From positions 3,100,001-3,164,000 of the forward strand of contig CM038999.1 of assembly GCA_017499595.2 (NCBI GenBank): DNA of 64,000 bases, in the 5' to 3' direction. The notes below the pieces were generated by a model. That model saw only the letters and a list, made by a program, of their open reading frames with translations. It ran no database searches and was not told the origin of the DNA. Of the stretch, positions 10,990 to 31,313 are shown piece by piece (the stretch's first letter is position 1; every line of letters starts with the position of its first letter). The stretch is from Psilocybe cubensis (taxonomy: Eukaryota). Made by a program: the position numbers and the translations under genes.

Positions 10990-11161
10990 TTCTGGTTTCT
11001 CTGTTGCATTTGCTTTCTTCTCTCTCATGTGTATTACTATTGTCAACATACTTTCTGAGAACAAAATCTATTGAAATGAAGCGACTCCCAAAATAGAAAA
11101 GATAGACCCAATTAAGGAAATTTTGCGTGCCATAAGGTTAGGGTTAGAAGAAAGAAAAGTC

Positions 11162-11344: not shown

Positions 11345-11404
11345 GAGTTGTTCGGATGTCGAGGCATCGCTTATATATCATTCAGCCGTGCACGGACCAT
11401 TTGA
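11345..11404 (-). promoter_or_regulatory. snRNA-type promoter: upstream element TCAAATGGTCCGTGCAC (-60..-44), TATA (-34..-27), conserved -17..-1 block
   Basis: The same blocks at the same spacing recur at 31053-31112 with diverged spacers. Confidence 0.7.
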
Positions 11405-12457: not shown

Positions 12458-12467
12458 CTTGGTTGCT

Positions 12468-12473
<6 letters not shown>
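12458..12473. repeat. Left target-site duplication of LINE (cttggttgctgctctt)
   Basis: Identical 16-mer at 20603-20618; last TT is ambiguous with the poly(T) run 12472-12503. Confidence 0.92.
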
Positions 12474-12504
<31 letters not shown>

Positions 12505-12706
12505 GTGGAGCGTTGATGTTACTGTTGTAACACCAGTCCTTTCGTGCGCGACTTTTCGACACTCAGGACCCGCTAGTTGATTTCAAGGACAATTGACCTT
12601 AACGAAAATATCCAGACCGTATTCACCCTGGGGAAATGCGTTTAAGCACTTTGTGTGGGACTCAAGACTAAACCGTTGATGGATCCTCCTGCGTGCCCCC
12701 CCATAC

Positions 12707-15700
12707 TTACCTTCCACGCCTCCTTCCATCAATCCTTCGCGGTTCAATACCCACTAAAACCCCAAAACTGCCTACCCAATCTTTGGGTAGGTTCTCCTCA
12801 TCCCGGAGCGTGCCTCGCCACGTGTTAAATACCAGCTTTTTTCGCAAGGCTTTCTTACCGTATTTGGCTCGCGTCAGTACGGAGTCCAATTCTAACCTCA
12901 GGTTAATGGTTTTCACCCATCTATTATGGACTTCGATTCCTGATACCGGTATCCCGTCCTCATTCTGGATTACTGCTTCGCAACGTAGTTTCCATATTAG
13001 ATATGCTGATTCCGTCATCAAGATTCGGAGCAGCCTTGCTTCCCCCTCAGCATTGTCCACCCGTTTGCCTTTTTTCTTATCACGTTTCATCGGTCTTGTG
13101 CTTAATATTATCTCTTCTAGAGTTGGTTCCGGCCAGGGGCTGCTAGTCCTCATACCCCAGAGTTCCCTCGCTAGGTTCCATATTTGGGCTCGTCCCGATG
13201 TCGGACACTTCTCAATGATGTGAGTCATCGACTCCGTCTCTCTTCCACATTGTTTGCATACGCTACGTTCCTGGAATTCTAGCCCAAAACCTGGTTTTCT
13301 CCAGTTATTTCCTATCATATAACCATCGTGAATCACCATCCATAGGAAGTTACGGATTGTTCTTGTTACATCCTTGTTCCTAATAGCCTTCCAGATTAGG
13401 CTGGTTTTATAATCCAGTTCCTGATTTTCTTTGGCAGCCGCCTCAATTTTTGTCAGGTTAGTCCGTGTTTGGTGTCGTTCCTCATAGTTTCTCATCTTGT
13501 GCTTACGGACTAGCTTGTATGCTTCCGATTGTGTCAGATTTGCTATGTCCGCTCCGGATAGATTCCACCCATTCATGATTTGTGTGTCTGGTTCAGCAAC
13601 TACTCCTTGGAGGACTCCAATGTCAGCTAGTTTTTCAGCATCCTTATCTCGTTGGTTTGGTTCACGATTTTGTTTCCACAGTATAATAGGTTCACAGCTC
13701 AGATGTCGCAGACTAGCAATTGTCGCTCGGACAAGTTTCGCGTCGGGCACTCCAAGGTAATCTCTTCGTTCATTTTTCATTGCATCAATTGTCAAATCCT
13801 TGACTGTGCCAATAGAATCAATTTCTACTGTTAGTTTTTCAGAGCTCGCTGTGCGGTCCGCAAGCAGTTTGATTGCGGTCAGTTCGCCTATTCTATCACT
13901 TTGTTCTGGGCTTGTTGACAGTTTGAGTGATAGGTTTTTTGGGCTACCGTCGCTAACAAACACACCGATTCCGGTTGTTTGTGTCTCCTTGAATGAGATA
14001 GTACTTATTGTTGCATGTATCGTGGTTATCTCCCCCTCGAATTTAGCTTGTATCTTTGGTAATGTATTGTTCGGCTCTCCCTCTGTGAATACTCTGAAGA
14101 TATTTGCAAGCGATCCACTAGTTTCAATGGTCCTACTAAATGGATATTTTGTAATGGGTTTGTCCTCGTTTGCGTATTGTTCACCTATCGGACGAGTTTG
14201 TGGGTGCCATTTTATGGTAAGCGTTTCTAGCAGTTCTTTTGCCTTTTCAAAACATTTATTTGGGTTTTCACATCCTAGTGTATTGCGTGCTGTGGTGCAT
14301 TCGTTGCATTCGCACCAGCTATCTCTTGTGTGGTCCACACTTTCAAGTACGTTGCGGATCCTTTCAATTTGTCCAACACTGATTGCATTATGGTTGTTTC
14401 TTATGCATTTACTGGCACCACTGTGATTCAGCCGTCGCAGCCTTGGAGCCGCTGCCTTATGGTACCACAAAGGCATTTCTCGTCTTATGTCTGACGACAC
14501 TTCAAGGCATTCAATGCGGGTATTATATTCCGCTGCAATTTTGATAAGCCTTCTTACACTGGGCGCTGCCTCCGTCCCTTGCATGGTTGTCCATGATTGC
14601 AGAAAAATATTTACATGCGCTTCAGGCGGTACATTTTTCTCCGTTTTTGGTACTTGTTTTGACATCAGGGCATCCGCAACAACTGCCCATGTTGGTCTGT
14701 CTGGTCCAAAGCTCAGGTACGACTTTAGCCACATCAGCTCAATAGCCTTGTTTCGAGCGTTAATATCCAGGACTGCCCTTCCTCCAGCGGTGATTGGCGA
14801 GTATATAGTTTTTTCATTTACTGGTATTAATTTCCGATTGTCCCAGAAAAACTGGCGCACACGTTTTGTTATACGTCTTTCAACCTCCACAGGCATACCT
14901 TGGACTGTTGTCAGGTACTGTGTCATCCCGCCTATTACCATCTGTATAATTAGGCGTCTGCCTTCCATCGTTGGGTGACTTTTCTCCCACCGTTCAAGAT
15001 TCTTGTCGATCTTTTCTAATACGGGTGCCCAGACATCTACCGTGTCAACATTATTACCTACCCATGCTCCCAGGATCCGGACGGCTTCGCCATCTTCTGC
15101 TATATGCATATTTGCTGGTATAGGTTCCCCATTTTGTTTTGTCGTACGTGTTTCTATTACCCTTGCTCTGTATTCCGATGTTCCTATTGGGATGATTTCG
15201 GTTTTCTGAATATTAAACTTGGCCAGTGATGCTTTACACCATTCATCAAGTATAGCTTGTAGGTCATTGAAGTCATCTTTCTCCGACAAGAAGGTTGTCG
15301 TATCGTCTGCAAACAGGTTGGCAATTAGTTTTTCTGTATTATTGGGGATCTTATATCCCTCTAGGTGTGATTCTCGCAGTCGGGCAGCTAAAGGTTCAAT
15401 TGCCAGATCAAAGAGCAGACACGACATAGGATCTCCTTGTCGCACACCCCTAGTCACATCAAAGCACGAGCTAAGGTATCCATTCACCATTACTTTTGTT
15501 TTTGCATGCTGATAGAGCGATTGAATAGTTGTAATAAATTTTTCCGGGATATTGTAGGTGCGTAGTGTTTTCCATAAGTATTCATGGTCTATCTTATCAT
15601 ATGCCTTTTCCTGATCTAGGGCTATTATCAGGCCATTCTGCTCTGTCGCCTCGGCATACTCGATCATCATCTCAATCAGTTTTGTTTGATCTGCTATTTT

Positions 15701-18040
15701 TCTGCCAGGTACAAAGCCAGCCTGGCTTTTATGTAGTAGGTTGGGTGCTACCTGGGCAAGTCTCATTGCTAGTACTTTTGTGAAGATTTTGTAATCTGTG
15801 TTGAGTATTGTTATTGGTCTATAGTTAGATATCTCATTGCGATCGTTCTTTTTATATAGTGGGCACATCCACCCATCCGAAAAACCGGTTGACGAGTCAA
15901 CTCCGTGTTCTTCTATATCGTTAAAGACGGCGGTTAGTAGTCCCACTATATTGAATTTTTGAGGGCTCATATCTTCTTTGTCAACATTCACTTTGTCAGT
16001 TTCATTTTGACGCTTAGCTTCTGTTTCCAGGTATGTTGCATTTAGCTTTTTCCACAGCTCATAAGTAATTCCGTCGGTTCCCGCAGCTTTGCGTAGCTGA
16101 CCTTTTGAAAGTGCCATGCTAACTTCAGCGGCATCAATTTTTTTCTCAAGGTCGCTGACTTGATCGCGTCTCACTCTTGTTGTGATGGCTCCGAGGACTT
16201 TGTCTGTACTAGCCTCCCTAAGTCTTGGATCCACATCGGTGCCTAGGTTCTGTAGGTTTTCGTGGTAATCCCTTGCCAGCTCTGCCATCTTTGGAGAGTG
16301 TTTTTCGTATGGGTCGCCAATCATTGTGGCATGTGCACCTTCCGCTTGTGCAACTGGCTTTCGTAGTGCTCGTATTACATCTCTGGGTTTGTTCTCTTTA
16401 TTAATGTTTGACCAGTATGTACTGATTGTTTCCCCTTCCAGTCTATTCAAAGCTGCAACATTGGTTCGTCGTTTTTGGTGGCGGCTAACCTCCAGTTTTT
16501 TAATTCTGGTTCGTATCTCCGATGCCTTTCTGTTTCGTGTTTCTTCGTGTTCATCACTATTATTAACCCTATCAAGCTCTGTTTCTAGATCTCGTAGTTG
16601 ATTAACAACTTTAGGCACTATGGCCCTGTCTCTGCTTCTTGCTTTTTCCATGATATCCTTTTTGAACGATGCAAACAGTCTCTGGACATTTTTTGTGTCT
16701 GTCCTTTGGTGTGAAATAGCTTCTGCTCGTTTCATTGTTTCTAAACCTTTCTTGTCAATATAGTCCAGAAGGATCCTATCCTTTAGCAGATATGAGGGTA
16801 ATGCCCATCTCCCTTTGCCTACTTCTGGTGTATTTTCGTTAACAACCTTGACTGACACCATGCGGTGGTCAGCATTGGGAACACCACTCGTACAGATTGT
16901 CCATTCTCGTGCCGTTTCCAAGATTCTTTGCTTGACATAGATGCGGTCAATTCGTGACTGTGATGCCCGACCATTCTGTTGTTGGAATGTATAGGCCTTA
17001 GAGTCCGGGTATGTGTCTCTCCATCCATCGTGGAGTCTTGCCAGCGTTTTGAGCTCATCAAACGCCTCTTGTATAGTATTAGTATCTCTATCACTTTTCA
17101 TAGGGCATCGGTCTATCTCACTTTCCACCATGTTAAAATCTCCCAACATTATGTCAGGGTACGCAGATGGGTGTTGTTCTAGGTACCTCTTTATTTCTAC
17201 CCAGAAGGGGCCATTTTCTGGAGTCTCGCATGGAGCATAGACGGCCAATATAGTAAGCTCATCCTCTCCATGCCACTTAATTTTGACGCTCAGAGCCCTT
17301 CCTTTAGTTATTTCAGTTGATTTAGCATGTGTTGCCTCGATTAGTTGTTTGTTGATTACTATTGCTACCCCGCCCTTTCCAGTTGGGTTCTGTGGGTCCG
17401 AGCTATAGAAAATTTTCAGTCGACGGCCAAATTGTCTCTCAATCTCCCGACATTTTGCTTCGTCCATGTGGGTCTCTTGTAGGGCCAAGATTGCGATTTT
17501 ACGTTCACGCATCTCCTGATTTATGTGTAGCCATTTATTATTCGGATGATTTGAGTTAGCACTTCCAAATCCCTTCATATTTAGCGACGCTATACCAATA
17601 GCGGCTTTTTTGAATGCTCTATCTGCATTCCGGCGTGCTCTACGGTTTAGACCATTTATATTAGCTACCATCTGGGTAGTTGCTTGAGACGGGCGCTCAT
17701 GGCGGTCCCCATCTTGAGCCATATCCATAGGCTCCCCCACAGTCTGTGGGTTGTGCTGAGAACTTGTCCTCAGGCTTTGCGCAGTCTGCGCTACCAGGTA
17801 TGCATCTGGGTTTTGTGTAGGTCCGTTTTGGTTCCCACCATCGCCCCTGTTCTCAGTCAGGCGATCTGTCACAGTCTGTGAGTCAACGGTGGATGATCCA
17901 CCTCTAGGTATCCGCTGATCATAATCTGGGTGCCCAGTAGTCGTCTGGCTGCACATCCCAGACTCCCTTTGGCTCCCTAGAACTCCATTTCCATAAACTG
18001 CCGCCCGATCCCTAAGGATGGGCCCAATGGAGGAGGCCAC
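12707..18040 (-). CDS. LINE ORF2: AP endonuclease, reverse transcriptase, degenerate RNase H, CCHC zinc finger (first ATG at 17956)
   Basis: APE motifs IASLNMKG, LALQETH, LGDFN, SRIDRIY, ADH; RT motifs NYRPITILNTDYKIF, LDQEKAYD, GVRQGDPMS, LFADD, ILG; Zn finger CKQC..ETESMTHIIEKC. Confidence 0.95.
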   Translation of the reverse strand: MASSIGPILRDRAAVYGNGVLGSQRESGMCSQTTTGHPDYDQRIPRGGSSTVDSQTVTDRLTENRGDGGNQNGPTQNPDAYLVAQTAQSLRTSSQHNPQTVGEPMDMAQDGDRHERPSQATTQMVANINGLNRRARRNADRAFKKAAIGIASLNMKGFGSANSNHPNNKWLHINQEMRERKIAILALQETHMDEAKCREIERQFGRRLKIFYSSDPQNPTGKGGVAIVINKQLIEATHAKSTEITKGRALSVKIKWHGEDELTILAVYAPCETPENGPFWVEIKRYLEQHPSAYPDIMLGDFNMVESEIDRCPMKSDRDTNTIQEAFDELKTLARLHDGWRDTYPDSKAYTFQQQNGRASQSRIDRIYVKQRILETAREWTICTSGVPNADHRMVSVKVVNENTPEVGKGRWALPSYLLKDRILLDYIDKKGLETMKRAEAISHQRTDTKNVQRLFASFKKDIMEKARSRDRAIVPKVVNQLRDLETELDRVNNSDEHEETRNRKASEIRTRIKKLEVSRHQKRRTNVAALNRLEGETISTYWSNINKENKPRDVIRALRKPVAQAEGAHATMIGDPYEKHSPKMAELARDYHENLQNLGTDVDPRLREASTDKVLGAITTRVRRDQVSDLEKKIDAAEVSMALSKGQLRKAAGTDGITYELWKKLNATYLETEAKRQNETDKVNVDKEDMSPQKFNIVGLLTAVFNDIEEHGVDSSTGFSDGWMCPLYKKNDRNEISNYRPITILNTDYKIFTKVLAMRLAQVAPNLLHKSQAGFVPGRKIADQTKLIEMMIEYAEATEQNGLIIALDQEKAYDKIDHEYLWKTLRTYNIPEKFITTIQSLYQHAKTKVMVNGYLSSCFDVTRGVRQGDPMSCLLFDLAIEPLAARLRESHLEGYKIPNNTEKLIANLFADDTTTFLSEKDDFNDLQAILDEWCKASLAKFNIQKTEIIPIGTSEYRARVIETRTTKQNGEPIPANMHIAEDGEAVRILGAWVGNNVDTVDVWAPVLEKIDKNLERWEKSHPTMEGRRLIIQMVIGGMTQYLTTVQGMPVEVERRITKRVRQFFWDNRKLIPVNEKTIYSPITAGGRAVLDINARNKAIELMWLKSYLSFGPDRPTWAVVADALMSKQVPKTEKNVPPEAHVNIFLQSWTTMQGTEAAPSVRRLIKIAAEYNTRIECLEVSSDIRREMPLWYHKAAAPRLRRLNHSGASKCIRNNHNAISVGQIERIRNVLESVDHTRDSWCECNECTTARNTLGCENPNKCFEKAKELLETLTIKWHPQTRPIGEQYANEDKPITKYPFSRTIETSGSLANIFRVFTEGEPNNTLPKIQAKFEGEITTIHATISTISFKETQTTGIGVFVSDGSPKNLSLKLSTSPEQSDRIGELTAIKLLADRTASSEKLTVEIDSIGTVKDLTIDAMKNERRDYLGVPDAKLVRATIASLRHLSCEPIILWKQNREPNQRDKDAEKLADIGVLQGVVAEPDTQIMNGWNLSGADIANLTQSEAYKLVRKHKMRNYEERHQTRTNLTKIEAAAKENQELDYKTSLIWKAIRNKDVTRTIRNFLWMVIHDGYMIGNNWRKPGFGLEFQERSVCKQCGRETESMTHIIEKCPTSGRAQIWNLARELWGMRTSSPWPEPTLEEIILSTRPMKRDKKKGKRVDNAEGEARLLRILMTESAYLIWKLRCEAVIQNEDGIPVSGIEVHNRWVKTINLRLELDSVLTRAKYGKKALRKKLVFNTWRGTLRDEENLPKDWVGSFGVLVGIEPRRIDGRRRGR

Positions 18041-18505
18041 ATCCTCTCCTGGTGCGACAGCCCGAGGTCCATTTCTCCAGCATCCTTGGGGTCTACCTAA
18101 GAGGGTAGTGTCTAATCCTGTATTGTTAGTAGGGTTAGTTGCACAAATAAAAGTTACCTAGAGAGGACAGGCCAAGCCCAGTCCAGGTCTGATGGTTTCC
18201 CGACGTCTCCGAGGTGTTGTAGAACACTACTCTTCAACGTAAGGATTGCCTGTATGTCCGGCGCGACCCCATCAGTAGCCTTGACTCTTCTTTTAAAATG
18301 CCTTCGACTTTCCTGTTCTAAGCAGTAAATTCGGTGTCCGGCGTTTGCAGAGGCTACTCTATATTTAGTGCAGACTCCTCCGACTTCTTCTAAATCTACA
18401 TTTAGGCCCAGACTGGGTTTTCAGCTCTTTGACAAGCATTAAGATGGATGACACAATTTATTAACATCACTATTGAGACATATTATACATGTACGAGGAC
18501 ATATG

Positions 18506-19846
18506 CTAGCCCCGGCGTTTGCTCACAGGTACCTTGGTCCAACCTCCACCAGAGCTTTCTCTGTTGCTTCCTCGCTGGTGGGGCGGCTTGCCTCGTCCCC
18601 GACCACCGCGACTCGGTCCAGAACCTCCGGCACTGGTTGCCTCTGCTCCCCATTCTTCCTCCTTTTCAACCTTTGCATTGTTTTTGGGGCCGAGCCAGTC
18701 TTCAATTGCTGGAAAAGGGCATTTATGGGCAGGGTGGGTGTCGGCCTTGCACCAGATACAACCAACAAAGGTGCGGTTTACGATGAGCTTGTGGCCGTCC
18801 GGGGTAACAAAGGGCTGCGCTTTCTTGATGGAAACAGGTTTTGCTTTCCCTTTGTTGGTGACTTGTACCGATGCTTGACCCGGTGCCCGCATGCAGGAGA
18901 GGAGGATCTTGTGGTCTCGAATATTTGCTGTCGCAGGCTTGCCTGTCAGCTGGAAGATGGGATTTGGTCGACCCTGAGCATCCAGCGCGTCGATGAAGGT
19001 GAGTTCGAGTGTCGAGGTGATTTTGTCGACCTGCGCACCCACAGAGAGGCTAGCGTTGCCGGCTGCCGCAATGTGGCGGCTAATCTCTGAGCGAACGTTC
19101 AGCTCTTCCCAGAAGCGCTTCTTGATAGTCCCCATGACTTGCTGTCGAGCACGCTTGGTATCTTCAACGGCATCCCCGGTAATATTCATGATAACCCAGC
19201 TCTGAACGGATGTGTCAAAGGCAATTGCATTGAACGTGATGACAGGGGAGATTGCGAAGGTTTGTTGCCATAGGAGGAAGCTGCGCATCTCTGCACTCGC
19301 CCGCTTGAGGATCATTGGCCATGGTCCTTCGAAGCGACGCCTCTTAGAAGATTCGTTTCGAGGGATTGGTTTCGCCAACTGGATTTCATCGTTGCCTTCA
19401 AAGCCCAACGATTTTAGGAAGGCCACTATCTCGCGATTGCATGTTGGGTTCTGATCGTAGTACCACTTCCCGGCGCCAAAGGGGACGATAGCTATGTGAT
19501 TCGCGGGATCCCTACTGATTTGCTCCACCTGTTCCTCAGCCATATTGTGCACAAGTTGTTCATAAGGGATTACAACCCTTGGGAAGTGAGCTCTCGTGTA
19601 TTGAGCACTGAGAGTGGGGGGGAGCGTGGGGATTTCGCCTCTGCCAGCAAGCTGGAAATGTGGATTCATTTCACGCTCAGCGGGGGGCGTATCAACGTCG
19701 AATGGGTCGGGGAAGGTAAATGGTGCGGGCAGGGTGCCGTTCAACATCTCTTCATCTACTTCTTCTTCCGATGCCCCGCTACCTCTGCGCCGTCTTTTCC
19801 TGCGCTGGGCTTCTTCCTCGTTAGAGGGGGTACGGTCGTTCTTCAA
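18506..19846 (-). CDS. LINE ORF1 nucleic-acid-binding protein (track start is TTG; first ATG at 19747)
   Basis: Basic NLS-like RRKRRRR, zinc knuckle CIWCKADTHPAHKC (CX2CX4HX4C), RGG-rich tail; lies upstream of ORF2 inside the TSD-bounded element. Confidence 0.85.
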   Translation of the reverse strand: MKNDRTPSNEEEAQRRKRRRRGSGASEEEVDEEMLNGTLPAPFTFPDPFDVDTPPAEREMNPHFQLAGRGEIPTLPPTLSAQYTRAHFPRVVIPYEQLVHNMAEEQVEQISRDPANHIAIVPFGAGKWYYDQNPTCNREIVAFLKSLGFEGNDEIQLAKPIPRNESSKRRRFEGPWPMILKRASAEMRSFLLWQQTFAISPVITFNAIAFDTSVQSWVIMNITGDAVEDTKRARQQVMGTIKKRFWEELNVRSEISRHIAAAGNASLSVGAQVDKITSTLELTFIDALDAQGRPNPIFQLTGKPATANIRDHKILLSCMRAPGQASVQVTNKGKAKPVSIKKAQPFVTPDGHKLIVNRTFVGCIWCKADTHPAHKCPFPAIEDWLGPKNNAKVEKEEEWGAEATSAGGSGPSRGGRGRGKPPHQRGSNRESSGGGWTKVPVSKRRG

Positions 19847-20498
19847 ATTCGACAGTTTGGAAGGGTGAGTGTGCCACTACTATGACACAGGGCAGTCAAG
19901 ATATGGGGAGATTCGTGGGCGGGGGCGTGATTGGGGATCTTTTATATGCCTATTTGGTGCCACTCAGTGAAAGGGCCGTACGAGTCTTTGTAACTATTGC
20001 TTTGCTCGCCTTTGTTCCATCTGATTCGGTTGTGACTTAATACTAAGTGCCACCGTGGCATACCTCCAACTTCGTATTCCAGTGGCACACGGTGTCTGGG
20101 TCGGGGGCGCATAGCCCGCCTTCTGCGATGGTTCCGAGGCTGGGTTTCGCAATGTTGAGCTTGAGGGGAGCAGTAACGAAGTCGTTGGTGTCACCAAGCT
20201 CGGTTCGTTAGTCATTGTTTACACGTGGGTTTACCGCGTACAGTTCTCGTGCGGAGACCACTGTCCACTGTCCACTGCAATAATCATAGCATAACGTGGT
20301 GTATTCAAGTTCGCGAATAATACACAGATAGTATATAGTTTGCGGTATGCGTGGACTAATAACGTCTATATGGCTCTGCGCCACTTTCTGCACGATTCCT
20401 CAGGATATCGACAGAGGCCACAGACTGTGGCCGGGTCTGCCTGAGGCAGTCCCGTTACATCGCAGTCTGCGATGGTTTAACCTCACACTGAAGTAGAG

Positions 20499-20602
20499 GA
20501 CGTCCATTGGCTTCCCTTGTCAGAGACAAGGTACTAGTCCCTTGAGCCACGGAGAGGCTGGACGCCGGGCCACCATAGATGATGGTGGTCCTTGTTCAAG
20601 GG
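20499..20602 (-). ncRNA. HDV-like (delta-like) ribozyme fold at the LINE 5' terminus (putative)
   Basis: P1 CCCTTGA/TCAAGGG, P2 GGCGTCCA/TGGACGTC, P3 GCC/GGC with L3 TCTCCGT, P4 CCTTGTC/GACAAGG, J4/2 GCCAA, all in HDV nested-pseudoknot order. Confidence 0.6.
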
Positions 20603-20618
20603 CTTGGTTGCTGCTCTT
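20603..20618. repeat. Right target-site duplication of LINE
   Basis: Identical to 12458-12473. Confidence 0.92.
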
Positions 20619-21079
20619 GAGCATGATCCCTTGCCGACTTGTTGACAGTAATATACCAATAATGTCAGATTGACACACAACCACTGATGCCGCAACAGCG
20701 CGACCAACTAAAAATCATGGAGACGGTAACCATTGCGTTGAGCGACTTCTCTGGTTTTGAGAGCACACAACGTTCGAGGAGGAGAGTCGAGGGAGAAGCG
20801 GTGGGGCAGTAAAAAAGCGTACAAATCCCATGTCAGAGTATAAGATTCATTTCGCAAAGACTGTAAGGCCAAGGAGATGTGTTTTGATGGGGGACTGCGC
20901 CAACTGATCGATTTATGGATGTCCCTGTTCAGTAGAAGAGCTGAGTAGACGGAAATAGCCGACACTGGGAACGTCTATTGAATTATTCTTGGACGTTGAC
21001 CAACTCAAGTCTTTCCCTCTTTCCGTCCTATCAAACTGGCTTTCTCTACATCCCCAGCAGCGCGCACCCATTATTTTTC

Positions 21080-23436
21080 ATGAGCAACGGATCAGCGACT
21101 GCCTTTTTGCTCTGGGCCATACTATCATGCATCGTGCGTACTCAGAGATGCCACTACGATCATTTAACTGCCCATGCTGACCAGATTGTGCTCTCCACCA
21201 GTTTCTCGCGTTTTTGCTGCTTCATCTGTGGGCGTATGATCGATTCAAATGTTTGAGATGGGACGCGGGGAGACAGCCAGGAGCGTTCAAGCGAGTAATG
21301 ACGTATGTCTGATCCATTCTACTTGCGAAGGGTGGTCCGCATGCTTCATTCTCACCGATTCATGTGCAACCATTTAGGTACTCGTACATCGCCACACTTC
21401 CCCTCTTGGTCGTCTTTAGTTTGGCCATGACGGCGCTTAAATTCATGGAAGGTGTGCTAGCCTTCATTCTCATTCATTTTTCATCAAATAACACTTGCAC
21501 GAAGGATTTTGGGTGACCCCGGATGGCCAGAGTAAGCGCCCTCAGATCGTTAGTGAAGCACTTCGCGTTTACATACCTATCCAGTCATCCCTCGACCGTT
21601 AGCCTTTTGGGCCCCGCATCATAGGCACTGGTTGCTTCCCTTGTATTTTGTTCTTAGCATTGCATGGTCACTTGAACTGTACGCGTATGATGGTTATCGT
21701 TTTCTATGCTTCGCTTACGCGTTCTCTGTCTCGCTTTAGTGTAACACATCTTGAAGGTATGAATTGAAATCGTCTGTTGTCCCTTGGCCATGCTCATTAT
21801 GAATGTAGAGCTCGCTTTCTGGCTATTTCTTTTGCATCAGGGTCCCGGTAAACGCGAATGGTTTCATAGTTGGGAATTTAGGTCTTGGTATTACGGTGCG
21901 AATGGATTCATTTCATATCTTCCATTGTACTTATCATCATCTGACTTCCAGGAAGTATTGTGGCCATTCTGGGAATGCCTCTAACTACTCTAGTGTCGAG
22001 GAGAGAGATTGAGAAGGTCCATTGCTTCATCGCGTCCTCCCCCTTTCCATCGCTCATGTCTAGACCCTTCTTCACAGACTCAAGGTTGGATATTCTTGGT
22101 GGGAGCGAGCGCAAGCACAACGACAACGCTGGCATTTCTCTATGTTCTTGCGCGTTTCCCAGGATTTATTCGTTACGTCAAGGAAGGGGGAGCAGAACCT
22201 GACGTTGTCATTCGATTGGCTACGTTTTACTCTCTAAATGTGAGCATAAACGATTGTTTGATATTGTAGCCATCTGACCTGGTCATTCGCACGATCTCAG
22301 CGAATCCGCGTTATGTTTCGTTTCCTGTTCACGGTGCCTCTCCTTATCATAGGCATCGACGCAGTTAAGCCGCCTTTCCCAGTAATAAACGATCCGTGAG
22401 TTTTTGTGTGTCCCCTTTAATAAGCAAACATTAACGGTTACGCGGATAGGTTTGCTGTGGGTATGTAGCGGCGCCCAGCCTATTTTCTCATTAGATACAG
22501 CGTTCAAATTTCACTCGTAGATTTTCTTATAATGATGGGAGGAATTGGGTGTTTTATCTCTTCCGCAATAACACTCTTAGTAAGGCACTTTTTTTTTTGC
22601 TTTTCTGGAAAGATCACTCAACGCCTCCATTAGATTTTCTTTCCCCGGTCCATTACGCGCGAATCTGGCTACAAAGCTAAAATTGTCACACCCCACAATA
22701 CCAAAGCGCCAAGCGTTGGCGCGCCGCTCCCCCATTACTATCATCCTCATGACCAGGAGCCCTCATCTCCCAAGACGCATACTGTAGCAACTCCCGTTTC
22801 AGCCACCCACATGAGTTCATTCCGGTTTCCAAACGAACAGCGGAGTCCTCGAGAGGTACAATCCACAAATTCCCAGGCAGGTTATCCCCGACGTTCTGCC
22901 GAGAGTGAGACTTCACCGGGATATGAATCGGATGCCGAGAGTATAGCACTGGCGTCGCCGTCAGCTGTACACTTCCAGTCGATGACGCCGCGGCAGGAGA
23001 GCTCTCAGACAGCGACATTGCGACCTACGTCTGGAGGCAGGTCAGACGATACTGTATGGGAGCGGCATGACGATTATTCGTCTACTACCCGACGGCAGCA
23101 CGCCGACGGTCCGTTTGTGTATAATCGCCAGGGTGTGATTGTGGCTACAATCCCAGCAAGCGGGCCCGCTTCCGAGGAGGAGGAACAGAGGTCAAATGAC
23201 CGTGAGCGTGCGGCCACTCCATCTCTACTCCATCCATATGTGAGTTTTGGCTTTTTGACTCGTGTCTTGTTTATGTCAGTGTCCAAGTGCAGTTGACTGA
23301 TGCAAACTATATTTTTATTTCCCTTTCCTTACAGCTGGTCAACTTCACGTCTCCTATTGATCTACTCGATACCCCTCACGCAGAACGGCCGCCGCTGCAT
23401 CCACATATATCCCCGGGACATGCACATATGGTGTAA
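21080..23436 (+). CDS. Uncharacterised multi-pass membrane protein (paralog of 61069-63170); many short exons
   Basis: MSNGSATAFLLWAILSCI | FLLLHLWAYDRFKCLRW..PGAFKRVMT; further hydrophobic exons; C-terminal NFTSPID; exons align with the second copy. Confidence 0.8.
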
Positions 23437-24325
23437 AACCTGGAAGACAAAAAAAAATACAGCAACCTCTTTCGCATTCACTCACTGCGATTTGTATCTT
23501 TTTTATATCTTGATACCATTTCACACTTTGCTTTGTTTTATTTTTTTTTGCAGTGTTGACATAGTATTCTATACCCCACCAAGTAACGACCCACATACGC
23601 ATATCGACGACACCTTCTACCGACATCATTCCCCCACATCCTGTCATTCCCACTACCTTTATACCTAATATTTCCAACTGTTCATTTACCTATTCCCACT
23701 GCACATTTCATATCCGATATATCCTACCCAATTTTACCCCCACAAAAATCCACCCGTGTATTCTTTATCCATCTTCTGTTTTTCCTTTGATTTTCGACAT
23801 GTATACGACGTGCGCGTAACATGTATTTTTTAGTTTTGTGTACCATATGTTTACTCTACCTCGCGCCGGCTTGCTCCAACCGTGGATAGATGTGTTTTTG
23901 TTATGTAGTGTCGGGCCCATTACCGCTGTTCCATCCCCGTTTTCTTGTGTCACTACTACCAAAAACCTTGACTTCTCTTGAACATTTTTACTTTTGTAAA
24001 TTATTGATAATACTCTATCTAGTTACGCATTAAAATCGCAGTAATTGAATGGAATTGACCTTGACTGGTGACTGAATTGTTATCGCAGAAAGTGGATTTG
24101 CGAAGATACAGTATTTGCTCCTTCTGGCAGTTGTGTACTCCCACACATTACACGCCACCTGAACAGTGTGCATCTTAACATTTGGTACCGAACTGGATGC
24201 ATTAAGGCAGCCTATTTATTATTTCACACGAAATGCACACAAATTTGTAGTTGTTTTACCAAAAAAAGATATATTTGTAGCCAATAAATGTGTACATAGG
24301 GTTAGGGTTAAAAGAAAGAAAAGTC

Positions 24326-24508
24326 AAAAAAGAGAGCCTGCCCAGCCAGAGTGGCCGAAGCAGGACAGGAAAATATTGAGACGGTGCATGAGCCTAAGCC
24401 CATACAAACCGCAGACACCCCCTGAGGACATGGTCGCCGTGCTATGGGGGATTTCCACGGCCCACAAACCCAGGTACTTGAAGGGGCTTATGCCATCAAG
24501 GTAAGTAT
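24326..24508 (-). ncRNA. U1-like small RNA gene, copy 2 (body intact, separated from its promoter by the Ngaro insertion)
   Basis: Identical to 11162-11344; its upstream sequence resumes at 31053. Confidence 0.7.
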
Positions 24509-24813
24509 AAGATATATTTCGCTCGGATTAAATTGCACTTTTTCGGAATGTGCTAAATTTGAGTAGAAGTGAAAGGAGGAGAAGGTGACAGAATATCCGA
24601 GTTATCTGATATTCCGTGGGTGCGTAGGGCTTTGGCGGGTGGTCAGGAAAGACCAAGTGAAGGTCACGAGAAATGACCGGATTCGAAGTGAGACACGCAA
24701 AGCGCGAGTCGTGAGGAAACGAAAGCGAGGAGAAAGGTTTAGCCGCCAAAGGCCTGAGCGCTTGGATCGAACCACGTGGAAATCGCAAACGAGAACCAAC
24801 GGTGGCAGTACCA
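24507..24813 (-). repeat. Ngaro split direct repeat B2
   Basis: Identical to 25152-25458. Confidence 0.95.
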
Positions 24814-24851
24814 AACACTGGAAAAAGGAAAGAAAAGGGAGAGGAGGGTGG

Positions 24852-25153
24852 GCTCAAAAGAAAAATCGGAGGCGAGTCGAGGGGAAAGACGAGATGAGAC
24901 TGGACGAGTCTGAAGACGAGCCGGTAGGGGAGAAAAATACGAGGACAACTTTTATTATATAGATGTACAGAAATTAAAGAATCAACAGAAGAGACTGGGG
25001 AGGTATGACAGGTGAGACCTGACAAGTGTCAGGTTCAGGAACCGGAAGACGTTAAGACGATCATTAAAACAGAGAAGACAAAACTCAAATAAGCAATCGT
25101 CATCCTCGCTGCTATCTTATCCATAGATGAGTGCTACGCACTCATCGTGGAAT
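24852..25153 (-). repeat. Ngaro split direct repeat A2
   Basis: Identical to 30751-31052; abuts B1 through the shared AT (25152-25153). Confidence 0.95.
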
Positions 25154-25458
25154 AAGATATATTTCGCTCGGATTAAATTGCACTTTTTCGGAATGTGCTA
25201 AATTTGAGTAGAAGTGAAAGGAGGAGAAGGTGACAGAATATCCGAGTTATCTGATATTCCGTGGGTGCGTAGGGCTTTGGCGGGTGGTCAGGAAAGACCA
25301 AGTGAAGGTCACGAGAAATGACCGGATTCGAAGTGAGACACGCAAAGCGCGAGTCGTGAGGAAACGAAAGCGAGGAGAAAGGTTTAGCCGCCAAAGGCCT
25401 GAGCGCTTGGATCGAACCACGTGGAAATCGCAAACGAGAACCAACGGTGGCAGTACCA
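25152..25458 (-). repeat. Ngaro split direct repeat B1
   Basis: Identical to 24507-24813. Confidence 0.95.
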
Positions 25459-25682
25459 GACGGAGCGCAAGCTCACCACCAACGCCGTGGGTTCTCGGGC
25501 CACAAGGAAGACCCAAGCAGAGCTGAGCACCAATGTTAGAAGAGGACGGACGTTGATATCAAACCAGATGTCAAGAAAATAAGCATGATTTAATTGAGTG
25601 AACACAGGATAAGTTTATACCGGAATAAAGTAGCGAGAAGGGAAATATTGCAGCAGAGAGTAGGTAAATAAAGTACAATGGT

Positions 25683-27557
25683 CTATAAGTTGAGAGAAGC
25701 AGCATTGGAGAGCGAGGATTGCGAGATGTTACAGTTGATGCGGAATTGTTCGACAGAAGCGGAAACATTATCTAGGTTTGATTTGGAATATGCAGCAGAT
25801 GTACAGGATGGGATGATTTCAGCCATACGGCGCCAATAAAGAAGGAAAGCGAGCGAGGTCCAGCCACCGGTGGCGGCCACAACCTGGAGAGAAAGAGATA
25901 AGAGATATGAAGGGAAGGAGATGAAGAGAAATACCTCAGGAGGGACACCGGCAAGGAGGAGGGTAACCGCACCACCAATGCGGAAGGAGTGGCCGGATAT
26001 GTGAGCGAGGTTAAGACGGTCCCACACTTTGCACACAAATTGCAGAAAAGTGTGTTTGTACAAGTGGGCCCAACCCCCATTGTTGGTGCGGTAAGCGAAG
26101 AGAGATGATAAGGGAGGAGGATTTCTGTTGATAATCATATGGTTGAGAAGAGCAGAGACAGGGCACAGAGCATCTCTGCGGGCAGTGATGATGATATCTG
26201 CGCCCTCCTCGTGTGTGGTTTTGGTCCAGGGGATGTGGAAACTAGCCGAGACGGCAGAACCATTGATATAGCGAAAGTTTATGAGAGAGTCGGAGGCGCA
26301 AACGTTGAGCAGTGGAGAGAAGGAGGAGGCAGACTTGACAGTGGTTTCCCCAAGACGACGACAGCCGAAAAAGGTAACAAGGGCACAAGCCCAAACTGCC
26401 GCATCGAAGGGTTTTGAGATGTCGATGGAATTGCGGAGGGCAAGAAGATGTTCGATGGAAACCGGAGCACGCGGAGGACGCTTGAAGGCTACACCAGCCT
26501 TACTGGCTGCTTTCCGTGCAAGAGACAGCCATTCGTTGTCTCCGTGCCAATCAGCCCCTTTGAGGACATGCCAAGCTCTGACACCGGCAAGCCAGGATTT
26601 GACTGTATTGCCAGAAACGCGACCGGAGGCCCAGTCAACAAAGGCAGTAAGGGTAACGATGGATGCGGGCATGCGGGAAGGCTCGGAGATGGAAGATTCG
26701 TCGCAGAATTCATGAAAACGTTTGAGACCTGCCGCATAGGTGGATTTTGAATTATCAGCGAGGGCCCGTGCCACGAGGTCGTAAGCCCGGTCCACTACAG
26801 CTGGGGGATGAGATGAGGACAGGTCCATTCTGTGAGACTGATCAAAAGAGGAAGTCCAAGAAGTGAGGCGAGCAGCAGCAGGAACGTTGGGGCGGAAAGG
26901 ATGAGATGATGATAAAGGGTTTGATGAAACAGGAGGAAGGTTATTTAACACGGGAGGTGAAGAGACCTTAGCTAACGAAGGGGAACAGGATGGTGAGGGA
27001 AGGGGTTGTGAAACTGGAGAAAGTACTGGAATCTGAGGGTTTAAATAAGAAGAAGGGGATCCGGGGGGAAGCAGGAAAGGAACAGGGCGAGGGTGAAACT
27101 TTTTGGAAGAAGATAGAATTGGAAGTGAAGAAACTTTAGAAGGGAAAGAAGAAGAAGAGCGGCTACGACGAGGTTTACTAGAACGTACAATTTTAGAAGA
27201 AGGGGGGTCAGAAAGCAAAGAGGAAAAGGGATGAGATTGGAACTGTGAAATGGGGATGTTTGATAGCGACACGCGGCGCGGAAGGGAAGTCGAGGAAGCG
27301 GACTCCCCACACGTGGAGCATCGGCCTTCCCGAGGCCCTTTATGCGAACAATGCATTGGGCAGGAAAGAGGAGCGGAGCTCGCCAGGCAGCGAGAAGCGA
27401 ACCTCCAATTCAAAGCCGAGAGGACCACCCAATCCGCGCGAGAGGGGGTCAGCAGGATTCTCTTTGGAAGCAACGTAGGATAATTCTGGAACAATATAAA
27501 TGGAAGAGAGGACAGCACAAGAACGACGGATGGAGAGGTTGATGTGAGGGTTAGCAC
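25683..27557 (-). CDS. Tyrosine recombinase of the Ngaro element (start uncertain; 51-nt intron 25884-25934)
   Basis: SAM-like N-domain ALADNSKSTYAAGLKRF; catalytic motifs FFGCRRLGE, IPWTKT, GHSFRIGG, GGW, LLYWR. Confidence 0.92.
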   Translation of the reverse strand: MLTLTSTSPSVVLVLSSLPFILFQNYPTLLPKRILLTPSRADWVVLSALNWRFASRCLASSAPLSCPMHCSHKGPREGRCSTCGESASSTSLPRRVSLSNIPISQFQSHPFSSLLSDPPSSKIVRSSKPRRSRSSSSFPSKVSSLPILSSSKKFHPRPVPFLLPPGSPSSYLNPQIPVLSPVSQPLPSPSCSPSLAKVSSPPVLNNLPPVSSNPLSSSHPFRPNVPAAARLTSWTSSFDQSHRMDLSSSHPPAVVDRAYDLVARALADNSKSTYAAGLKRFHEFCDESSISEPSRMPASIVTLTAFVDWASGRVSGNTVKSWLAGVRAWHVLKGADWHGDNEWLSLARKAASKAGVAFKRPPRAPVSIEHLLALRNSIDISKPFDAAVWACALVTFFGCRRLGETTVKSASSFSPLLNVCASDSLINFRYINGSAVSASFHIPWTKTTHEEGADIIITARRDALCPVSALLNHMIINRNPPPLSSLFAYRTNNGGWAHLYKHTFLQFVCKVWDRLNLAHISGHSFRIGGAVTLLLAGVPPEVFLFISFPSYLLSLSLQVVAATGGWTSLAFLLYWRRMAEIIPSCTSAAYSKSNLDNVSASVEQFRINCNISQSSLSNAASLNL

Positions 27558-30500
27558 TGCGGCCCTTGGTAAAGGCGCCTATAGTGCCTTGATTATCTGA
27601 GTGAATCAGGAGGCGGATGTTGGATAGAGGTAAGCCCTCAATGATGTAGATGAGGAGTTCAATAGCGATGGTTTCCAGCCAACAGATGTCGCGTCGGCCA
27701 ACCTTCCAGGAAGAGGACAACTGGAAGGCCGCCCATTTCCCATCAATAACAATACCAATGCCCCAGGAGGTGCTGGCGTCCACGAAGATCTGTCGATCAA
27801 CGACGGGACCAAGCGGTGAAAGGAGACGGGTGATGCCCACAGAGGATAAAATGGGAATCCACCAACTGACGTCTGTCAAAACCGATGGAGGGGGGTAACG
27901 GCTTGCGTATTCATTGTCATTAAAGGAGGCAGCGAAGTTAGAGAGGGAAGGGAGGTGTGAACGACCAAGGGGATATACAATGGTAATGTAGCAGAGAGAA
28001 CCGTGCAAACTCTCCACCTGACTGAGTCGACACCGATGGCCACTGAAATTGTCAAGGAAGTGACGAGCGCGGGCGAGGAATTTTAGGCGCTTAGGATCGG
28101 CCAACGCAACTGTGTGGTTGGCAAAGTCCCAGACCAGGCCCAAAAAGATAGTGGAGGAGGAGAAAGTGCGAGTGCCCTTGGTGGGATGCCAAGGGACACC
28201 TAGGTCACTGACATGCGACATCATTGAGTCCCAATCGTAGTCGTAGCGGAAGGCTCCGTCCACAAAGGGGCCAGAGAGGGAGGGGCTGCGAAGGATGTTG
28301 AGGTCATCCTCGTACTTCAGGATAGGCTTGACGCCAGATGCAATCCAGATATCAACTAGAGCATTGGCAATCATGCCTGCATTGGAACTGGCGCAAGCAG
28401 CACCGAAGGGATGAACATGATCGATGTAGAACTCGTCTTCCCCAAGACCTTGAACAACAAGCCATGGCTTGTGGTCTGGGAAGACAGGGCATGTGCGGTG
28501 GAATTTTTCAATGTCTACCGTCACCGCCTGAGTGCCCGGGGGGGCCATAGCAACCTGAAGAAGGTATCAGAGAGGAAGAGGGAAAGTCAAGATAAGATGA
28601 AGTAGGAAGGGAAGCAAAGAGATGAGGGAGTGCATTGTGCGGATAGAGGAGAAAGGGAAAGGTGGAGGAGGAGGGAGGGGAGGAGAAAAGGAAGGGATGA
28701 AGGGAGGGGAGGGGATGAAAGGAGAAGGAGGGGATGGAGGAGAGGAGGATAGACGTACGATGTCAGCCACGCGGACGGCAGTGTCAAAGCGTGTCGGAAA
28801 ATCGGATTTACGGATGAAAGAGTTCACCGATGGAACTTGGGAGGTAGCCTTGGAGAGATTGCGACAAATACGAATTTTGTCGGGCTCTCCAGGAGCTTGA
28901 GGTTGGATTGCAACAATGAGAGGGGAGGATTGGAAAGGTCCGCGGAGGATTTTTTCAATGAGATCTCTGGGGAAAGGACCAGTCATACGACCAGCAGAAA
29001 CCTCGTCATTGATGTAGGCCGAAACCTCCGCAGGAAAGAGAGAACAAGAGGGATGGTTTTTTAGGATGTGGGTGGAGGAGAGAGGAGGCATGGGACCAAG
29101 AGGAAAGCCGGATGAAAGGTTGCGAACAAGGAGTGGGTAAGTTGAGGAGAGGTTGAATTTTTTGAGAGCGGAATGAAAGGCAGCGGGTGAGTAGGGAGTG
29201 ACAATGCGCGAAAAGATATTGGGGAGAGTGTGTAAAGAAGGAGAGAATGGGGGGCGGACATGAATGCGAGAGGAAAAGTCGGGATAAAAAAGGCGGGGAG
29301 GAGAAGAGAAGAAAGATGAATTAGTTGTAGGCAGGTCTTGCCCGACAGGTGAAGGAGAAAGCGTGATGGGATTTAGAACCACAGAAGCAGCAGATGTGGG
29401 AACGGGCAGTGCCGTGTCCGCATGGGGTAGGGTTGTTGGGGCCCCTGATGTTAAAGGAAAGACAGATTTCTCTGTTGTCAGGAGCAAGGAGTTTCCCATC
29501 TTGGGAGTGGGCCCAGGCATTCTTACCATCTGGGAACTTAGCCGGGACTTTGTCTTTGGGATGGGAGCCGAGGGAGTGACCGACCTCTGCACAAAGGAGG
29601 CAGATAGGTGGGCCGGTAGATGACCTATTGCCTGATTGAAAAAGAGTGTTGGAGGAGGAATTGCCAGAGCGGCGATTAGAGGAGAAGGATTTGAAACGAG
29701 ATACGGACTCTTCGAGTGAAGCAAGTTTGGAGGAGAGGGCTGCCACCTGAGATTGTGCAGCCTGGGCCTGTCTGTACTCCGAGATAGCATGGTTAAACGC
29801 GGTCTCGTAGTCAAGAACAGAGAAACGTTGAAGGAAAGTGTGAGTATCACGACGCAATTTGAACTCTGCCACCTTCCATGCCGGATAAAGGGCGACAGAA
29901 TCAGGGCGAGAGCTCCAGAAAGAAAAATGACCAGTCCAAATGGAAATCCACTCATCATCAGAAGCGCGCTCCCTCTGAAAGCGGGTATATTGATCGGCAG
30001 CTTGCATGAAAGAACCAAAATCAAGGGAAAGCTCTTCCCCCAATTTGGCGGTAAGCTTTTCGATGTCGAGGATGTAGAGAGCTTTCGAGTCTGGAGAAAT
30101 TGAATTGGACTTCTTGATAGGAAGGCTGGCAAGGTTGTCAATGATGTAACGGAGACTTTTTTGAGTGAAAAAGGGAAGAGGGAGATTAGCCTGAGCTTTT
30201 TCCGTCTGGAACATGATTTCTGGAAAAGCAATGACGGTAGGAGCCATCGGATCACGAATAGAAAGGGACGAGCCTTGCATGCATCTGCGCTTGGCAATTC
30301 TGTCCTCAGCAGAGGAAGGGAGGTCTTTGATGGAAGAGTCCTCGATAGATCTTTTCTGTTCTCTGGCAAGGGAGTCCTGTTCAGAGAGCCAGGCAATGAG
30401 ATAATCAGGGATTTCATCTTTATCCAGATATTTTTTAGCAATAGCAGGAATTCTGAGCTGAGCCTCGTCATCGGGTGAAAGAGAGATAACGGAGGCCTCG

Positions 30501-30582
30501 GGGGATCCGGGCATAGGAAAAGCCGCGGGATCCAGACTATGATTAGCAGTTTTGGTGATGCGCTCGAGATTTTTTGCCACAA
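27340..30582 (-). CDS. Reverse transcriptase/RNase H of the Ngaro element (conserved part starts ~29240; 204-nt intron 28555-28758; start uncertain)
   Basis: GPFQSSPL, KIRICRNLS, VDIEKFHR, HPFG, YEDD, FLG; RNase H FVDAS, WLE, HSDN, NPADPLSRG. Confidence 0.9.
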
Positions 30583-30745
30583 TGGCCTTGTTGCGAGCCA
30601 GTTTCAGAGGCAGAGGCAGAGATTTTAAGACAGCATAAGCAGCGGGAACAGCACGGGTAATGTGCGCTCTGGGAGGATTAGCAGGCGGCGCTGGGACGGG
30701 AGACGGTGCGCGAGAGTCGTGAACGGATTGGCCGGCTTCAGACAT
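29321..30745 (-). CDS. Gag-like ORF1 of the Ngaro element
   Basis: ATG just inside of repeat A1; coiled coil followed by Cys/His motifs CLLCAEVGHSLGSH and C..FN...C.H....HICCFCGSKSH. Confidence 0.85.
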   Translation of the reverse strand: MSEAGQSVHDSRAPSPVPAPPANPPRAHITRAVPAAYAVLKSLPLPLKLARNKAIVAKNLERITKTANHSLDPAAFPMPGSPEASVISLSPDDEAQLRIPAIAKKYLDKDEIPDYLIAWLSEQDSLAREQKRSIEDSSIKDLPSSAEDRIAKRRCMQGSSLSIRDPMAPTVIAFPEIMFQTEKAQANLPLPFFTQKSLRYIIDNLASLPIKKSNSISPDSKALYILDIEKLTAKLGEELSLDFGSFMQAADQYTRFQRERASDDEWISIWTGHFSFWSSRPDSVALYPAWKVAEFKLRRDTHTFLQRFSVLDYETAFNHAISEYRQAQAAQSQVAALSSKLASLEESVSRFKSFSSNRRSGNSSSNTLFQSGNRSSTGPPICLLCAEVGHSLGSHPKDKVPAKFPDGKNAWAHSQDGKLLAPDNREICLSFNIRGPNNPTPCGHGTARSHICCFCGSKSHHAFSFTCRARPAYN

Positions 30746-30750
30746 GGCGA

Positions 30751-31052
30751 GCTCAAAAGAAAAATCGGAGGCGAGTCGAGGGGAAAGACGAGATGAGACT
30801 GGACGAGTCTGAAGACGAGCCGGTAGGGGAGAAAAATACGAGGACAACTTTTATTATATAGATGTACAGAAATTAAAGAATCAACAGAAGAGACTGGGGA
30901 GGTATGACAGGTGAGACCTGACAAGTGTCAGGTTCAGGAACCGGAAGACGTTAAGACGATCATTAAAACAGAGAAGACAAAACTCAAATAAGCAATCGTC
31001 ATCCTCGCTGCTATCTTATCCATAGATGAGTGCTACGCACTCATCGTGGAAT
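30751..31052 (-). repeat. Ngaro split direct repeat A1 (5' end of element)
   Basis: Identical to 24852-25153. Confidence 0.95.
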
Positions 31053-31112
31053 GAGTTGTTCGGATGTCGGTGCGATGTATTTATACTGGCTATCTGTGCA
31101 CGGACCATTTGA
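31053..31112 (-). promoter_or_regulatory. Displaced promoter of U1-like RNA copy 2, now directly upstream of the Ngaro element
   Basis: TCAAATGGTCCGTGCAC at -60..-44, TATAAATA at -33..-26, CGACATCCGAACAACTC at -17..-1; matches 11345-11404. Confidence 0.75.
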
Positions 31113-31313
31113 GCTTGTTTACACATCTTTTTGATCTCGTGCCTCGCCTTCGGTACCGATTCTTGACCACTTCTAAAAGCTTCTAACTCGAATAGTCGTT
31201 GAGGACCTGATGCATGGCTTACAAAATTGATATATATGAAGTTTCTTTTCACCTATGTACAGTTCAGCTTGCCAAATTGTAGTCGCAGATCTCCCACGGC
31301 GACTGTTGGCCAA

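Follow-up and report, generated by a model that had tools for sequence, protein, structure and literature searches.

The window analysed here, a 64,000-nt stretch of Psilocybe cubensis DNA (contig CM038999.1, positions 3,100,001 to 3,164,000), carries on its minus strand a 6.5 kb Ngaro retrotransposon (24509-31052) that separates the body of a U1 small nuclear RNA (snRNA) gene (24295-24508) from its own promoter (31053-31112). An intact paralog of the same U1 gene lies elsewhere in the window, likewise on the minus strand (Table 1). Self-BLAST of the window, with which a separate repeat finding agreed, resolved the element into the split direct repeats expected of Ngaro, in the order A1-ORFs-B1-A2-B2 (ORFs, open reading frames), the two copies of repeat B being 100% identical over 307 nt and the two copies of repeat A over 302 nt. 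The preliminary description of this DNA had identified a Ngaro-type tyrosine recombinase (YR) retroelement, and this is borne out by the A-pol-B-A-B repeats, by the fold of its reverse transcriptase (RT) and RNase H, by a tyrosine recombinase and by integration without target-site duplication (TSD). The element is a Ngaro YR retrotransposon of the order DIRS and an ordinary member of the Agaricomycotina Ngaro group, full-length and apparently functional.

Comparison of the occupied locus with the intact paralog defined the insertion to the base. The empty site reads gtaagt-AT-gagttg (11337-11350, U1 paralog 1), the left junction gtaagt-AT-aagata (24501-24514), the internal B1/A2 junction gtgga-AT-aagata (25147-25159) and the right junction gtgga-AT-gagttg (31046-31058), all four strings being present where the preliminary description had placed them. 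One AT, corresponding to U1 nucleotides +1/+2, stands at either end of the element and nothing is duplicated, so that filled and empty sites differ by the element and one AT only; the proposal of a conservative integration through this AT without TSD is thereby upheld. Since the element and both U1 genes all lie on the minus strand, the accompanying claim that the element is inserted in the orientation of the U1 gene is also correct.

In order to compare this locus with other material, three sets of contigs (including X5, X7 and X9) and one set of raw reads (X10) were aligned to positions 11120-31119. Fourteen X10 raw DNA reads, with 12 different starts, join the U1 5' end (11342) to position 31051 and extend 69 nt into the promoter of the occupied locus (locus 2), 19 of these nucleotides being common to both U1 promoters; four further X10 reads join 24506 to 31051. 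An X7 contig carries TCAAGGTAAGT directly before 31051, and an X5 contig continues from the U1 5' end across the 17 nt common to both loci to GTGCGATG (31070-31077), which is specific to locus 2. As these reads and contigs connect the U1 5' end to the locus-2 promoter, the insertion is polymorphic between strains. Depth in X7 was zero over 25794-30462, and the element interior is missing there from the contigs of both X7 and X9. The X5 contigs contain the element interior as a single 5,352-nt contig that shows no differences to the window and has a depth of 21.9, as compared to 16-25 for the flanking contigs, some of which show about 3% difference to the window; these data are most simply explained by a dikaryon with the insertion on one haplotype only. 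No contig bridging the filled junctions was found among the matches listed, and evidence for the filled state therefore comes from the window and from the sampled words of six sequencing runs from two studies, which contain 0.94-0.98 of the sampled 31-mers of 24200-31300 and four of which may be the window's own source. From the complete identity of the repeats and the polymorphism of the insertion we conclude that the insertion is young.

The host gene belongs to a 214-nt unit that occurs twice in the window with 99.07% identity, and the 24-nt U1 5' end was found on the minus strand at 11321-11344 and 24485-24508 (0 occurrences expected). When 197 nt were searched alone, the alignment to Rfam family RF00003 spanned the complete model (positions 1-166 of 166) with 27.1 bits (E 2.1e-5), which is below the gathering score of 69.5; at gathering score the whole window gave no Rfam match, and an E-value search of 11050-11450 (401 nt) did not report U1. 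The first 10 nt of the gene are AUACUUACCU, the exact invariant 5' end of U1. Its minimum free energy fold (z -2.83) contains a four-way junction made up of helix H and three stem-loops, followed by a single-stranded AAUAUUUUCC stretch and a terminal 3' stem-loop; we read the Sm-like U-rich stretch as deviating from the usual consensus. Based on the exact 5' end, the four-way-junction fold and the full-model RF00003 alignment, we accept the RNA as a divergent basidiomycete U1 despite its sub-threshold score. A telomere-like GGTTAGGGTTA(G) motif is located within the 214-nt unit, about 25-35 nt downstream of both U1 3' ends (11136-11147 and 24300-24310).

Upstream of the AT the two U1 loci are alike in blocks only, namely in the 17 nt that directly follow the AT, at -33 to -26, where both have a TATA-like box, and at -44 to -60, where both have a 17-mer. 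With three mismatches allowed, the 17-mer has two matches, a number that was reached in one of 100 shuffles. The position and conservation of these blocks suggest that they constitute the U1 promoter, and the window thus contains a multicopy U1 gene with conserved promoter blocks at a fixed distance. A third upstream sequence following the U1 5' end was observed as a loose end at 11347 in an X7 contig and in 29 X10 reads, indicating that the species has at least three U1 contexts.

The coding part of the element begins with a gag-like ORF1 in which no Pfam family was detected; it is assigned as gag by position alone, and Cys/His clusters near its C-terminus were noted by eye. The ORFs 28567-30603 and 27340-28566 share one frame and are separated by one stop. 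The second part, encoding the RT and RNase H, has 422 homologs at E ≤ 1e-3 (best identity 62%), the named ones originating from Candolleomyces and Mycena and one being labelled reverse transcriptase/ribonuclease H. Its AlphaFold2 model, built on 28 sequences (pLDDT 84.8), was compared by Foldseek to the PDB, where the top matches were the RTs of xenotropic murine leukaemia virus-related virus (XMRV), cauliflower mosaic virus (CaMV), Moloney murine leukaemia virus (MMLV), foamy virus and Ty3 (E 3e-8 to 6e-7). Conserved columns include Y81, E82, D83 and D84 (YEDD), a DAS motif, E299, D320 and N366-A368-D369. Neither the window protein nor any one of the 28 aligned members was recognised by a Pfam family, and a PDB sequence search with the RT/RNase H profile returned nothing meaningful (best E 0.063, an unrelated protein). 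As judged from the modelled fold, this second part is an RT with RNase H, as is characteristic of Ngaro elements. RNase H and the recombinase are separated by a low-complexity stretch rich in Ser and Pro.

For the recombinase, 462 homologs were found at E ≤ 1e-3, the best being Psilocybe cyanescens proteins with 63-64% identity, and several homologs from Agaricales are named as core-binding or Tyr-recombinase-domain proteins. The residues R157, K203, H280, R283, W323 and Y331 are conserved (R-K-H-R-W-Y columns). Among 27 aligned members, 17 contain PF00589 (best E 3.6e-6); this family was not detected in the ORF of the window element itself when read through its intron, which gave only a weak SAM-like match (E 0.15). 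This gene product is a tyrosine recombinase that stands in place of a DDE integrase, again as in Ngaro. Considering RT/RNase H and recombinase together, the nearest named homologs come from Psilocybe, Panaeolus, Candolleomyces, Hebeloma, Coprinopsis and Mycena. A Pfam search of the four element ORFs gave no match at E ≤ 0.01 and two weak matches at E ≤ 10; apart from these two no family, Dam included, was found at the latter threshold and hence no methyltransferase, the absence of which sets Ngaro apart from DIRS and PAT.

Two introns interrupt these genes in our annotation. The 17 residues that would be encoded by the 51-nt GT..AG intron of the recombinase gene are missing in all 26 aligned homologs, and ten X10 DNA reads with eight different starts jump exactly this segment. 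Intron-less DNA copies must therefore exist in another strain, which implies that the family passes through spliced RNA. The 204-nt segment that splits the RT frame is a putative second intron, as suggested by its splice signals (GTACGT...CAG) and by the single in-frame TGA that it holds; reads without this segment were not among the matches listed.

Table 1. Coordinates of the features of the U1 loci and of the Ngaro element (window positions, except in the last row).
Feature	Position	Strand	Evidence or remarks
U1 snRNA gene, paralog 1, intact	11172-11344 (conserved unit 11131-11344)	-	RF00003 match and fold; RNA starts at 11344
Promoter of U1 paralog 1	11345-11404	-	-1 to -17 block; TATATAAG at -33 to -26 (11370-11377); 17-mer at 11388-11404
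U1 body of locus 2, severed from its promoter	24295-24508 (RNA-coding part ~24336-24508)	-	99.07% identical to paralog 1
Repeat B2 (3' terminal repeat)	24507-24813	-	Ends ...ATATCTTAT; 100% identical to B1; shared AT at 24507-24508
Unique spacer between A2 and B2, 38 nt	24814-24851	-	Between the two repeat blocks in self-BLAST
Repeat A2	24852-25153	-	100% identical to 30751-31052
B1/A2 junction, predicted circle junction, imperfect palindrome	25110-25162	-	Outer arms TATCTTAT / ATAAGATA; inner 9-bp hairpin GATGAGTGC-GTA-GCACTCATC
Repeat B1	25152-25458	-	Self-BLAST
Tyrosine recombinase gene (core-binding and catalytic domains), read through the 51-nt intron	25686-26828	-	Homologs, catalytic residues
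Intron of the recombinase gene, 51 nt, GT..AG	25884-25934	-	Missing from homologs; skipped in X10 DNA reads
RT (palm, thumb) and RNase H, second exon	27340-28554	-	Homologs, predicted fold
Putative intron, 204 nt, GTACGT...CAG	28555-28758	-	Splice signals; holds the single in-frame TGA splitting the RT frame
N-terminal part of RT (first exon); overlaps with the end of the gag frame	28759-29290	-	Open frame
ORF1, gag-like, 474 codons	29321-30745 (ATG at 30745)	-	ORF at the expected position
Repeat A1 (5' terminal repeat)	30751-31052	-	Starts AT-TCCACGATGAG; 100% identical to A2
Orphaned promoter of U1 locus 2	31053-31112	-	-1 to -17 block; TATAAATA at 31078-31085; 17-mer at 31096-31112
B/A junctions of relatives	L038:2428-2490, L047:3449-3517, L049:6034-6102, L051:3243-3311, L065:2957-3025		Fold as imperfect palindrome

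The element was compared with 80 metagenome loci carrying a related RT/RNase H (482,514 nt in total), out of 231 confirmed relatives. These represent other families, with about 55-64% protein identity to the window element and about 75% nucleotide identity in coding parts only. The internal B1/A2 junction of the window, which would correspond to the junction of a circular intermediate, folds at -23.9 kcal/mol, and the B/A palindrome is kept in all six natural junctions available (the window and the five related loci of Table 1, 53-69 nt). A consensus fold of these junctions predicts 24 pairs, four of which display compensatory changes, all within the inner hairpin, the outer stem being almost invariant. 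Repeat B ends ...TATCTTAT in the relatives as well, and repeat A starts with TCC(A/G)CGATGAG-hairpin-CTCATC..GGATAAGAT. The exchanged AT forms the last two bases of the left outer arm. Judging from sequence conservation, the B/A palindrome is a candidate recombination site that may function either as a folded single strand or, in duplex form, as inverted repeats. Outside the AT, the similarity between target arms and circle-junction arms was by eye at about chance level in the window, L018 and L046. Two unrelated 5' flanks, L046:1-131 and an X7 loose end at 31050, both end in ...GCCAAA before TCC, which in L046 belongs to a palindrome (TTTGGCATGCCAAA).

The relatives were also searched for U1 next to the element. 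The U1 5' 10-mer was found in none of the 80 loci in the orientation of the element and twice on the opposite strand, both occurrences resembling intron 5' splice sites. BLAST and nhmmer comparisons of the related loci to the window's U1 and both promoters gave a best E of 0.08. At gathering score no Rfam family was detected in 23 related loci (234,415 nt), a result that cannot exclude U1 because the window's own U1 fails this score. Split repeats were not seen in most of the related metagenome contigs, presumably having been collapsed by short-read assembly, and element ends were therefore located by the ...CTTAT and TCC-CGATGAG motifs (L043, L059, L080 and the complex repeats of L049 were partly resolved). 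The ...CTTAT end of B2 is common to nine relatives, and a 3' flank could be read in L001, L005, L007, L009, L012, L018, L043, L046 and L062; not counted were L002, which is the same copy as L001 (99.6% identical), and L059 and L033, in which the similarity stops before ...CTTAT. U1 adjoins the 3' end in none of these nine, and all nine flanks differ from one another. Diverged copies of the terminal repeats with non-U1 flanks are also present in X7 and X9, with one 3' flank found in both and two different 5' flanks. The 30 nt known of each correspond neither to U1 nor to a U1 promoter, and none contains the canonical internal-junction motif, for which reason they are read as genomic flanks; none of the three had a match in the window.

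The observations reported so far show a single insertion event of an element present at about single-copy depth in X5, and not the many independent copies at one target position known from elements of the Dada-U1 and Utopia type. U1 targeting is not a trait of the clade, and the relatives do not speak for the habit of this family itself. The proposal that the family is target-specific and finds a safe harbour in snRNA start sites is not supported, given the single-copy depth, the absence of U1 from the nine readable flanks and of its 10-mer in element orientation from the 80 loci, and the non-U1 flanks in X7 and X9. Of the claim that the insertion lies precisely at U1 +1, the position proved exact; its interpretation as targeting is not supported, since one event is at hand and the relatives are located elsewhere.

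The same description had suggested that the family captures the promoter of its host gene. However, repeat A1 carries its own TATA box (TATATAAT, 30860-30853), at nt 193 of A1 and 108 nt upstream of the gag ATG, which makes a captured host promoter unnecessary and leaves promoter capture unsupported as a family strategy. A TATA-like box occurs at a similar place in L038 (nt 204), and TATTTAAA was noted by eye in L018. The TATA box of A1 fits the standard Ngaro model of a transcript that is initiated within A1 and regains from A2 the part it lacks. The U1 promoter blocks adjoining the element are intact, and as their start would fall on the first base of A1, extra transcripts from the U1 promoter are possible.

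Two further repeats were observed in the window. An 8.1 kb retrotransposon without long terminal repeats (non-LTR), of the LINE (long interspersed nuclear element) type, occupies 12458-20602 on the minus strand and contains a 1,816-codon ORF with endonuclease/exonuclease/phosphatase, RVT_1 and zf-RVT domains. It is missing from X7 and X9 contigs, in which 12457 is joined directly to 20603. The window thus contains two polymorphic insertions, this one lying about 1.1 kb away from the intact U1 gene. Additionally, self-BLAST revealed diverged direct repeats of 77-82% identity (~48.1-50.5 kb and ~51.1-52.5 kb, within 48145-52528).

Several transposable elements, Dada-U1, Dada-U6, Utopia and Keno, are specific for snRNA genes. 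Like the element described here they insert into a multicopy snRNA gene, but they belong to the DDE transposons or the non-LTR elements, generate TSDs and occupy one fixed position within the RNA in many copies, whereas the window contains one copy of a YR retroelement at +1. Ty3 integrates at RNA polymerase III transcription start sites and resembles the window element in being a retroelement that lands within a base or two of the start of a small RNA; in contrast to the latter it relies on a DDE integrase, depends on TFIIIB, generates TSDs and does so with every copy. No YR retrotransposon in snRNA genes is reported in the literature searched, in agreement with the preliminary description, which knew of no snRNA targeting by Ngaro. 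An snRNA-directed YR retroelement is without precedent in the literature searched, and one insertion does not establish one. Passages of PMC8869645 list non-LTR elements, Dada, Pokey and CryptonV as known target-specific groups.

Among YR retroelements, the Agaricomycotina Ngaro elements surveyed by Muszewska et al. 2013 (PMC3783388) have, according to portions of that survey, A-pol-B-A-B repeats and genes for gag, RT, RNase H and YR without a methyltransferase, and share repeats, gene set (gag in the window being assigned by position) and host group with the window element. The words intron, target, insertion site and promoter do not occur in the main text of the survey as far as it was available, whereas the window element has an exact empty site, two introns (one of them putative) and a defined palindromic junction. 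The Ngaro elements of Cafeteria burkhardae, as outlined in parts of PMC8547959, are about 6 kb long with the same layout (A1-[ORFs]-B1A2B2) and with genes for gag (in the window a gag-like ORF1), RT-RH and YR, and their types can prefer integration sites; the preference is for endogenous virophage DNA and is based on 80 copies, in contrast to the one copy in a host RNA gene found here. For DIRS-1, integration is thought to proceed from restored circular DNA, such that both ends come to carry a few bases that circle junction and target have in common, without TSD, and single-stranded cDNA intermediates have been reported (sections of PMC7192593). This model includes, as does the window element, a short core shared by circle junction and target; DIRS-1 differs by its inverted terminal repeats, its internal complementary region, the methyltransferase present in its group and a trinucleotide core instead of AT. 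According to the same sections, there have been hardly any experimental studies of how Ngaro and DIRS elements integrate.

We favour, with moderate confidence, the view that the locus records one opportunistic conservative integration at an AT in accessible and highly transcribed DNA, and not the activity of a U1-specific lineage. A full-length Ngaro of this Agaricales fungus would have entered, very recently, one of at least three copies of the U1 snRNA gene. A conservative exchange carried out by its tyrosine recombinase would have linked a DNA intermediate in circular (or folded) form to the chromosome, the B/A junction of this intermediate presumably being the conserved imperfect palindrome ...TATCTT-AT-TCCACGATGAG..., and the exchange would have occurred through an AT that happens to be U1 +1/+2, leaving one AT at each end and no duplication. 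The U1 body split from its promoter is probably silenced, the loss of one copy being tolerated because other U1 copies exist, and the element is most likely transcribed from its own TATA-containing A1 promoter. Several points weigh against this account. In our judgement, a single random insertion would be very unlikely to fall exactly on the two initial bases of an snRNA and, in addition, to share its orientation. The relatives compared are other families and so say little about this one. The alternative X7 and X9 flanks are known for 30 nt only, and one of these flanks, located 5' in X9, contains a TATAAT-like motif some 20-27 nt upstream of its junction with the element; they come from the loose ends listed, beside which 152 further ones exist. 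Finally, three of the four other 5' junctions read ...A/TCC and not ...AT/TCC, so that the exact point of exchange may vary.

The exact +1/+2 position, the orientation and the TATAAT-like motif of the X9 flank are what might be expected if integration were guided by start sites, the recombinase or gag being drawn to the pre-initiation complex or to nucleosome-free DNA at TATA-dependent, highly transcribed small-RNA genes, much as Ty3 is to RNA polymerase III start sites, with a bias that is not specific to U1. Passages of PMC8547959 that attribute differences in integration-site preference between Cafeteria Ngaro types to ORF1 point in the same direction. However, no TATA is present at -25 to -35 in the 5' flanks of L018 and L046 or in that of the X7 copy, no Rfam small RNA was found beside any of the 23 related loci scanned and only one event is available, and we regard such guidance as unlikely. 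More doubtful still is a Ngaro lineage that recombinase or gag would direct to the initiation complex at TATA-dependent snRNA genes, and in which strand exchange at the first transcribed bases would enable the host promoter to produce a complete genomic RNA beginning with the first base of A1. As to a lineage strictly specific for snRNA start sites, with multicopy U1 as its safe harbour and the U1 promoter as the source of full-length RNA from the first base of A1, the precise position and orientation, the multiplicity of U1 with at least three upstream contexts and the intact promoter blocks beside the element would all be compatible with it. We consider it very improbable, given that one of the two window U1 genes is occupied, that other strains lack the insertion, that the depth of the element is that of a single copy and A1 contains a TATA of its own, that neither the nine relatives nor the three X7 and X9 flanks lead into U1, and that the literature searched offered no YR retrotransposon in snRNA genes. 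The lack of a contig bridging the filled junctions among the matches listed, together with the 100% identity of the repeats, would also be expected if the element had been misplaced beside U1 by an assembly mis-join at a repeat. This we hold to be extremely unlikely, as the six runs of two studies contain nearly all sampled words of the filled locus (with the reservation made above for four of them), a single clean conservative exchange accounts to the base for both junctions and the empty site, and the A1-B1A2B2 layout is as expected. An opportunistic conservative integration therefore remains our preferred reading of the locus.

If further copies sat at snRNA start sites, the element would represent a new class of target-specific element with relevance to site-directed insertion, which the present data do not show; a lineage steered to snRNA initiation complexes would, if real, be the tyrosine-recombinase counterpart of Ty3 start-site targeting and the first snRNA-directed YR retroelement. 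Independently of these possibilities, the intron-less DNA copies are direct evidence that the family passes through RNA, and the conserved palindromic junction marks the likely recombination site. With filled and empty alleles known to the base, a 2-nt shared core and no duplication, the locus provides a clean natural example of the integration of a YR retroelement, and the pair of alleles constitutes ready substrates for an in vitro assay.

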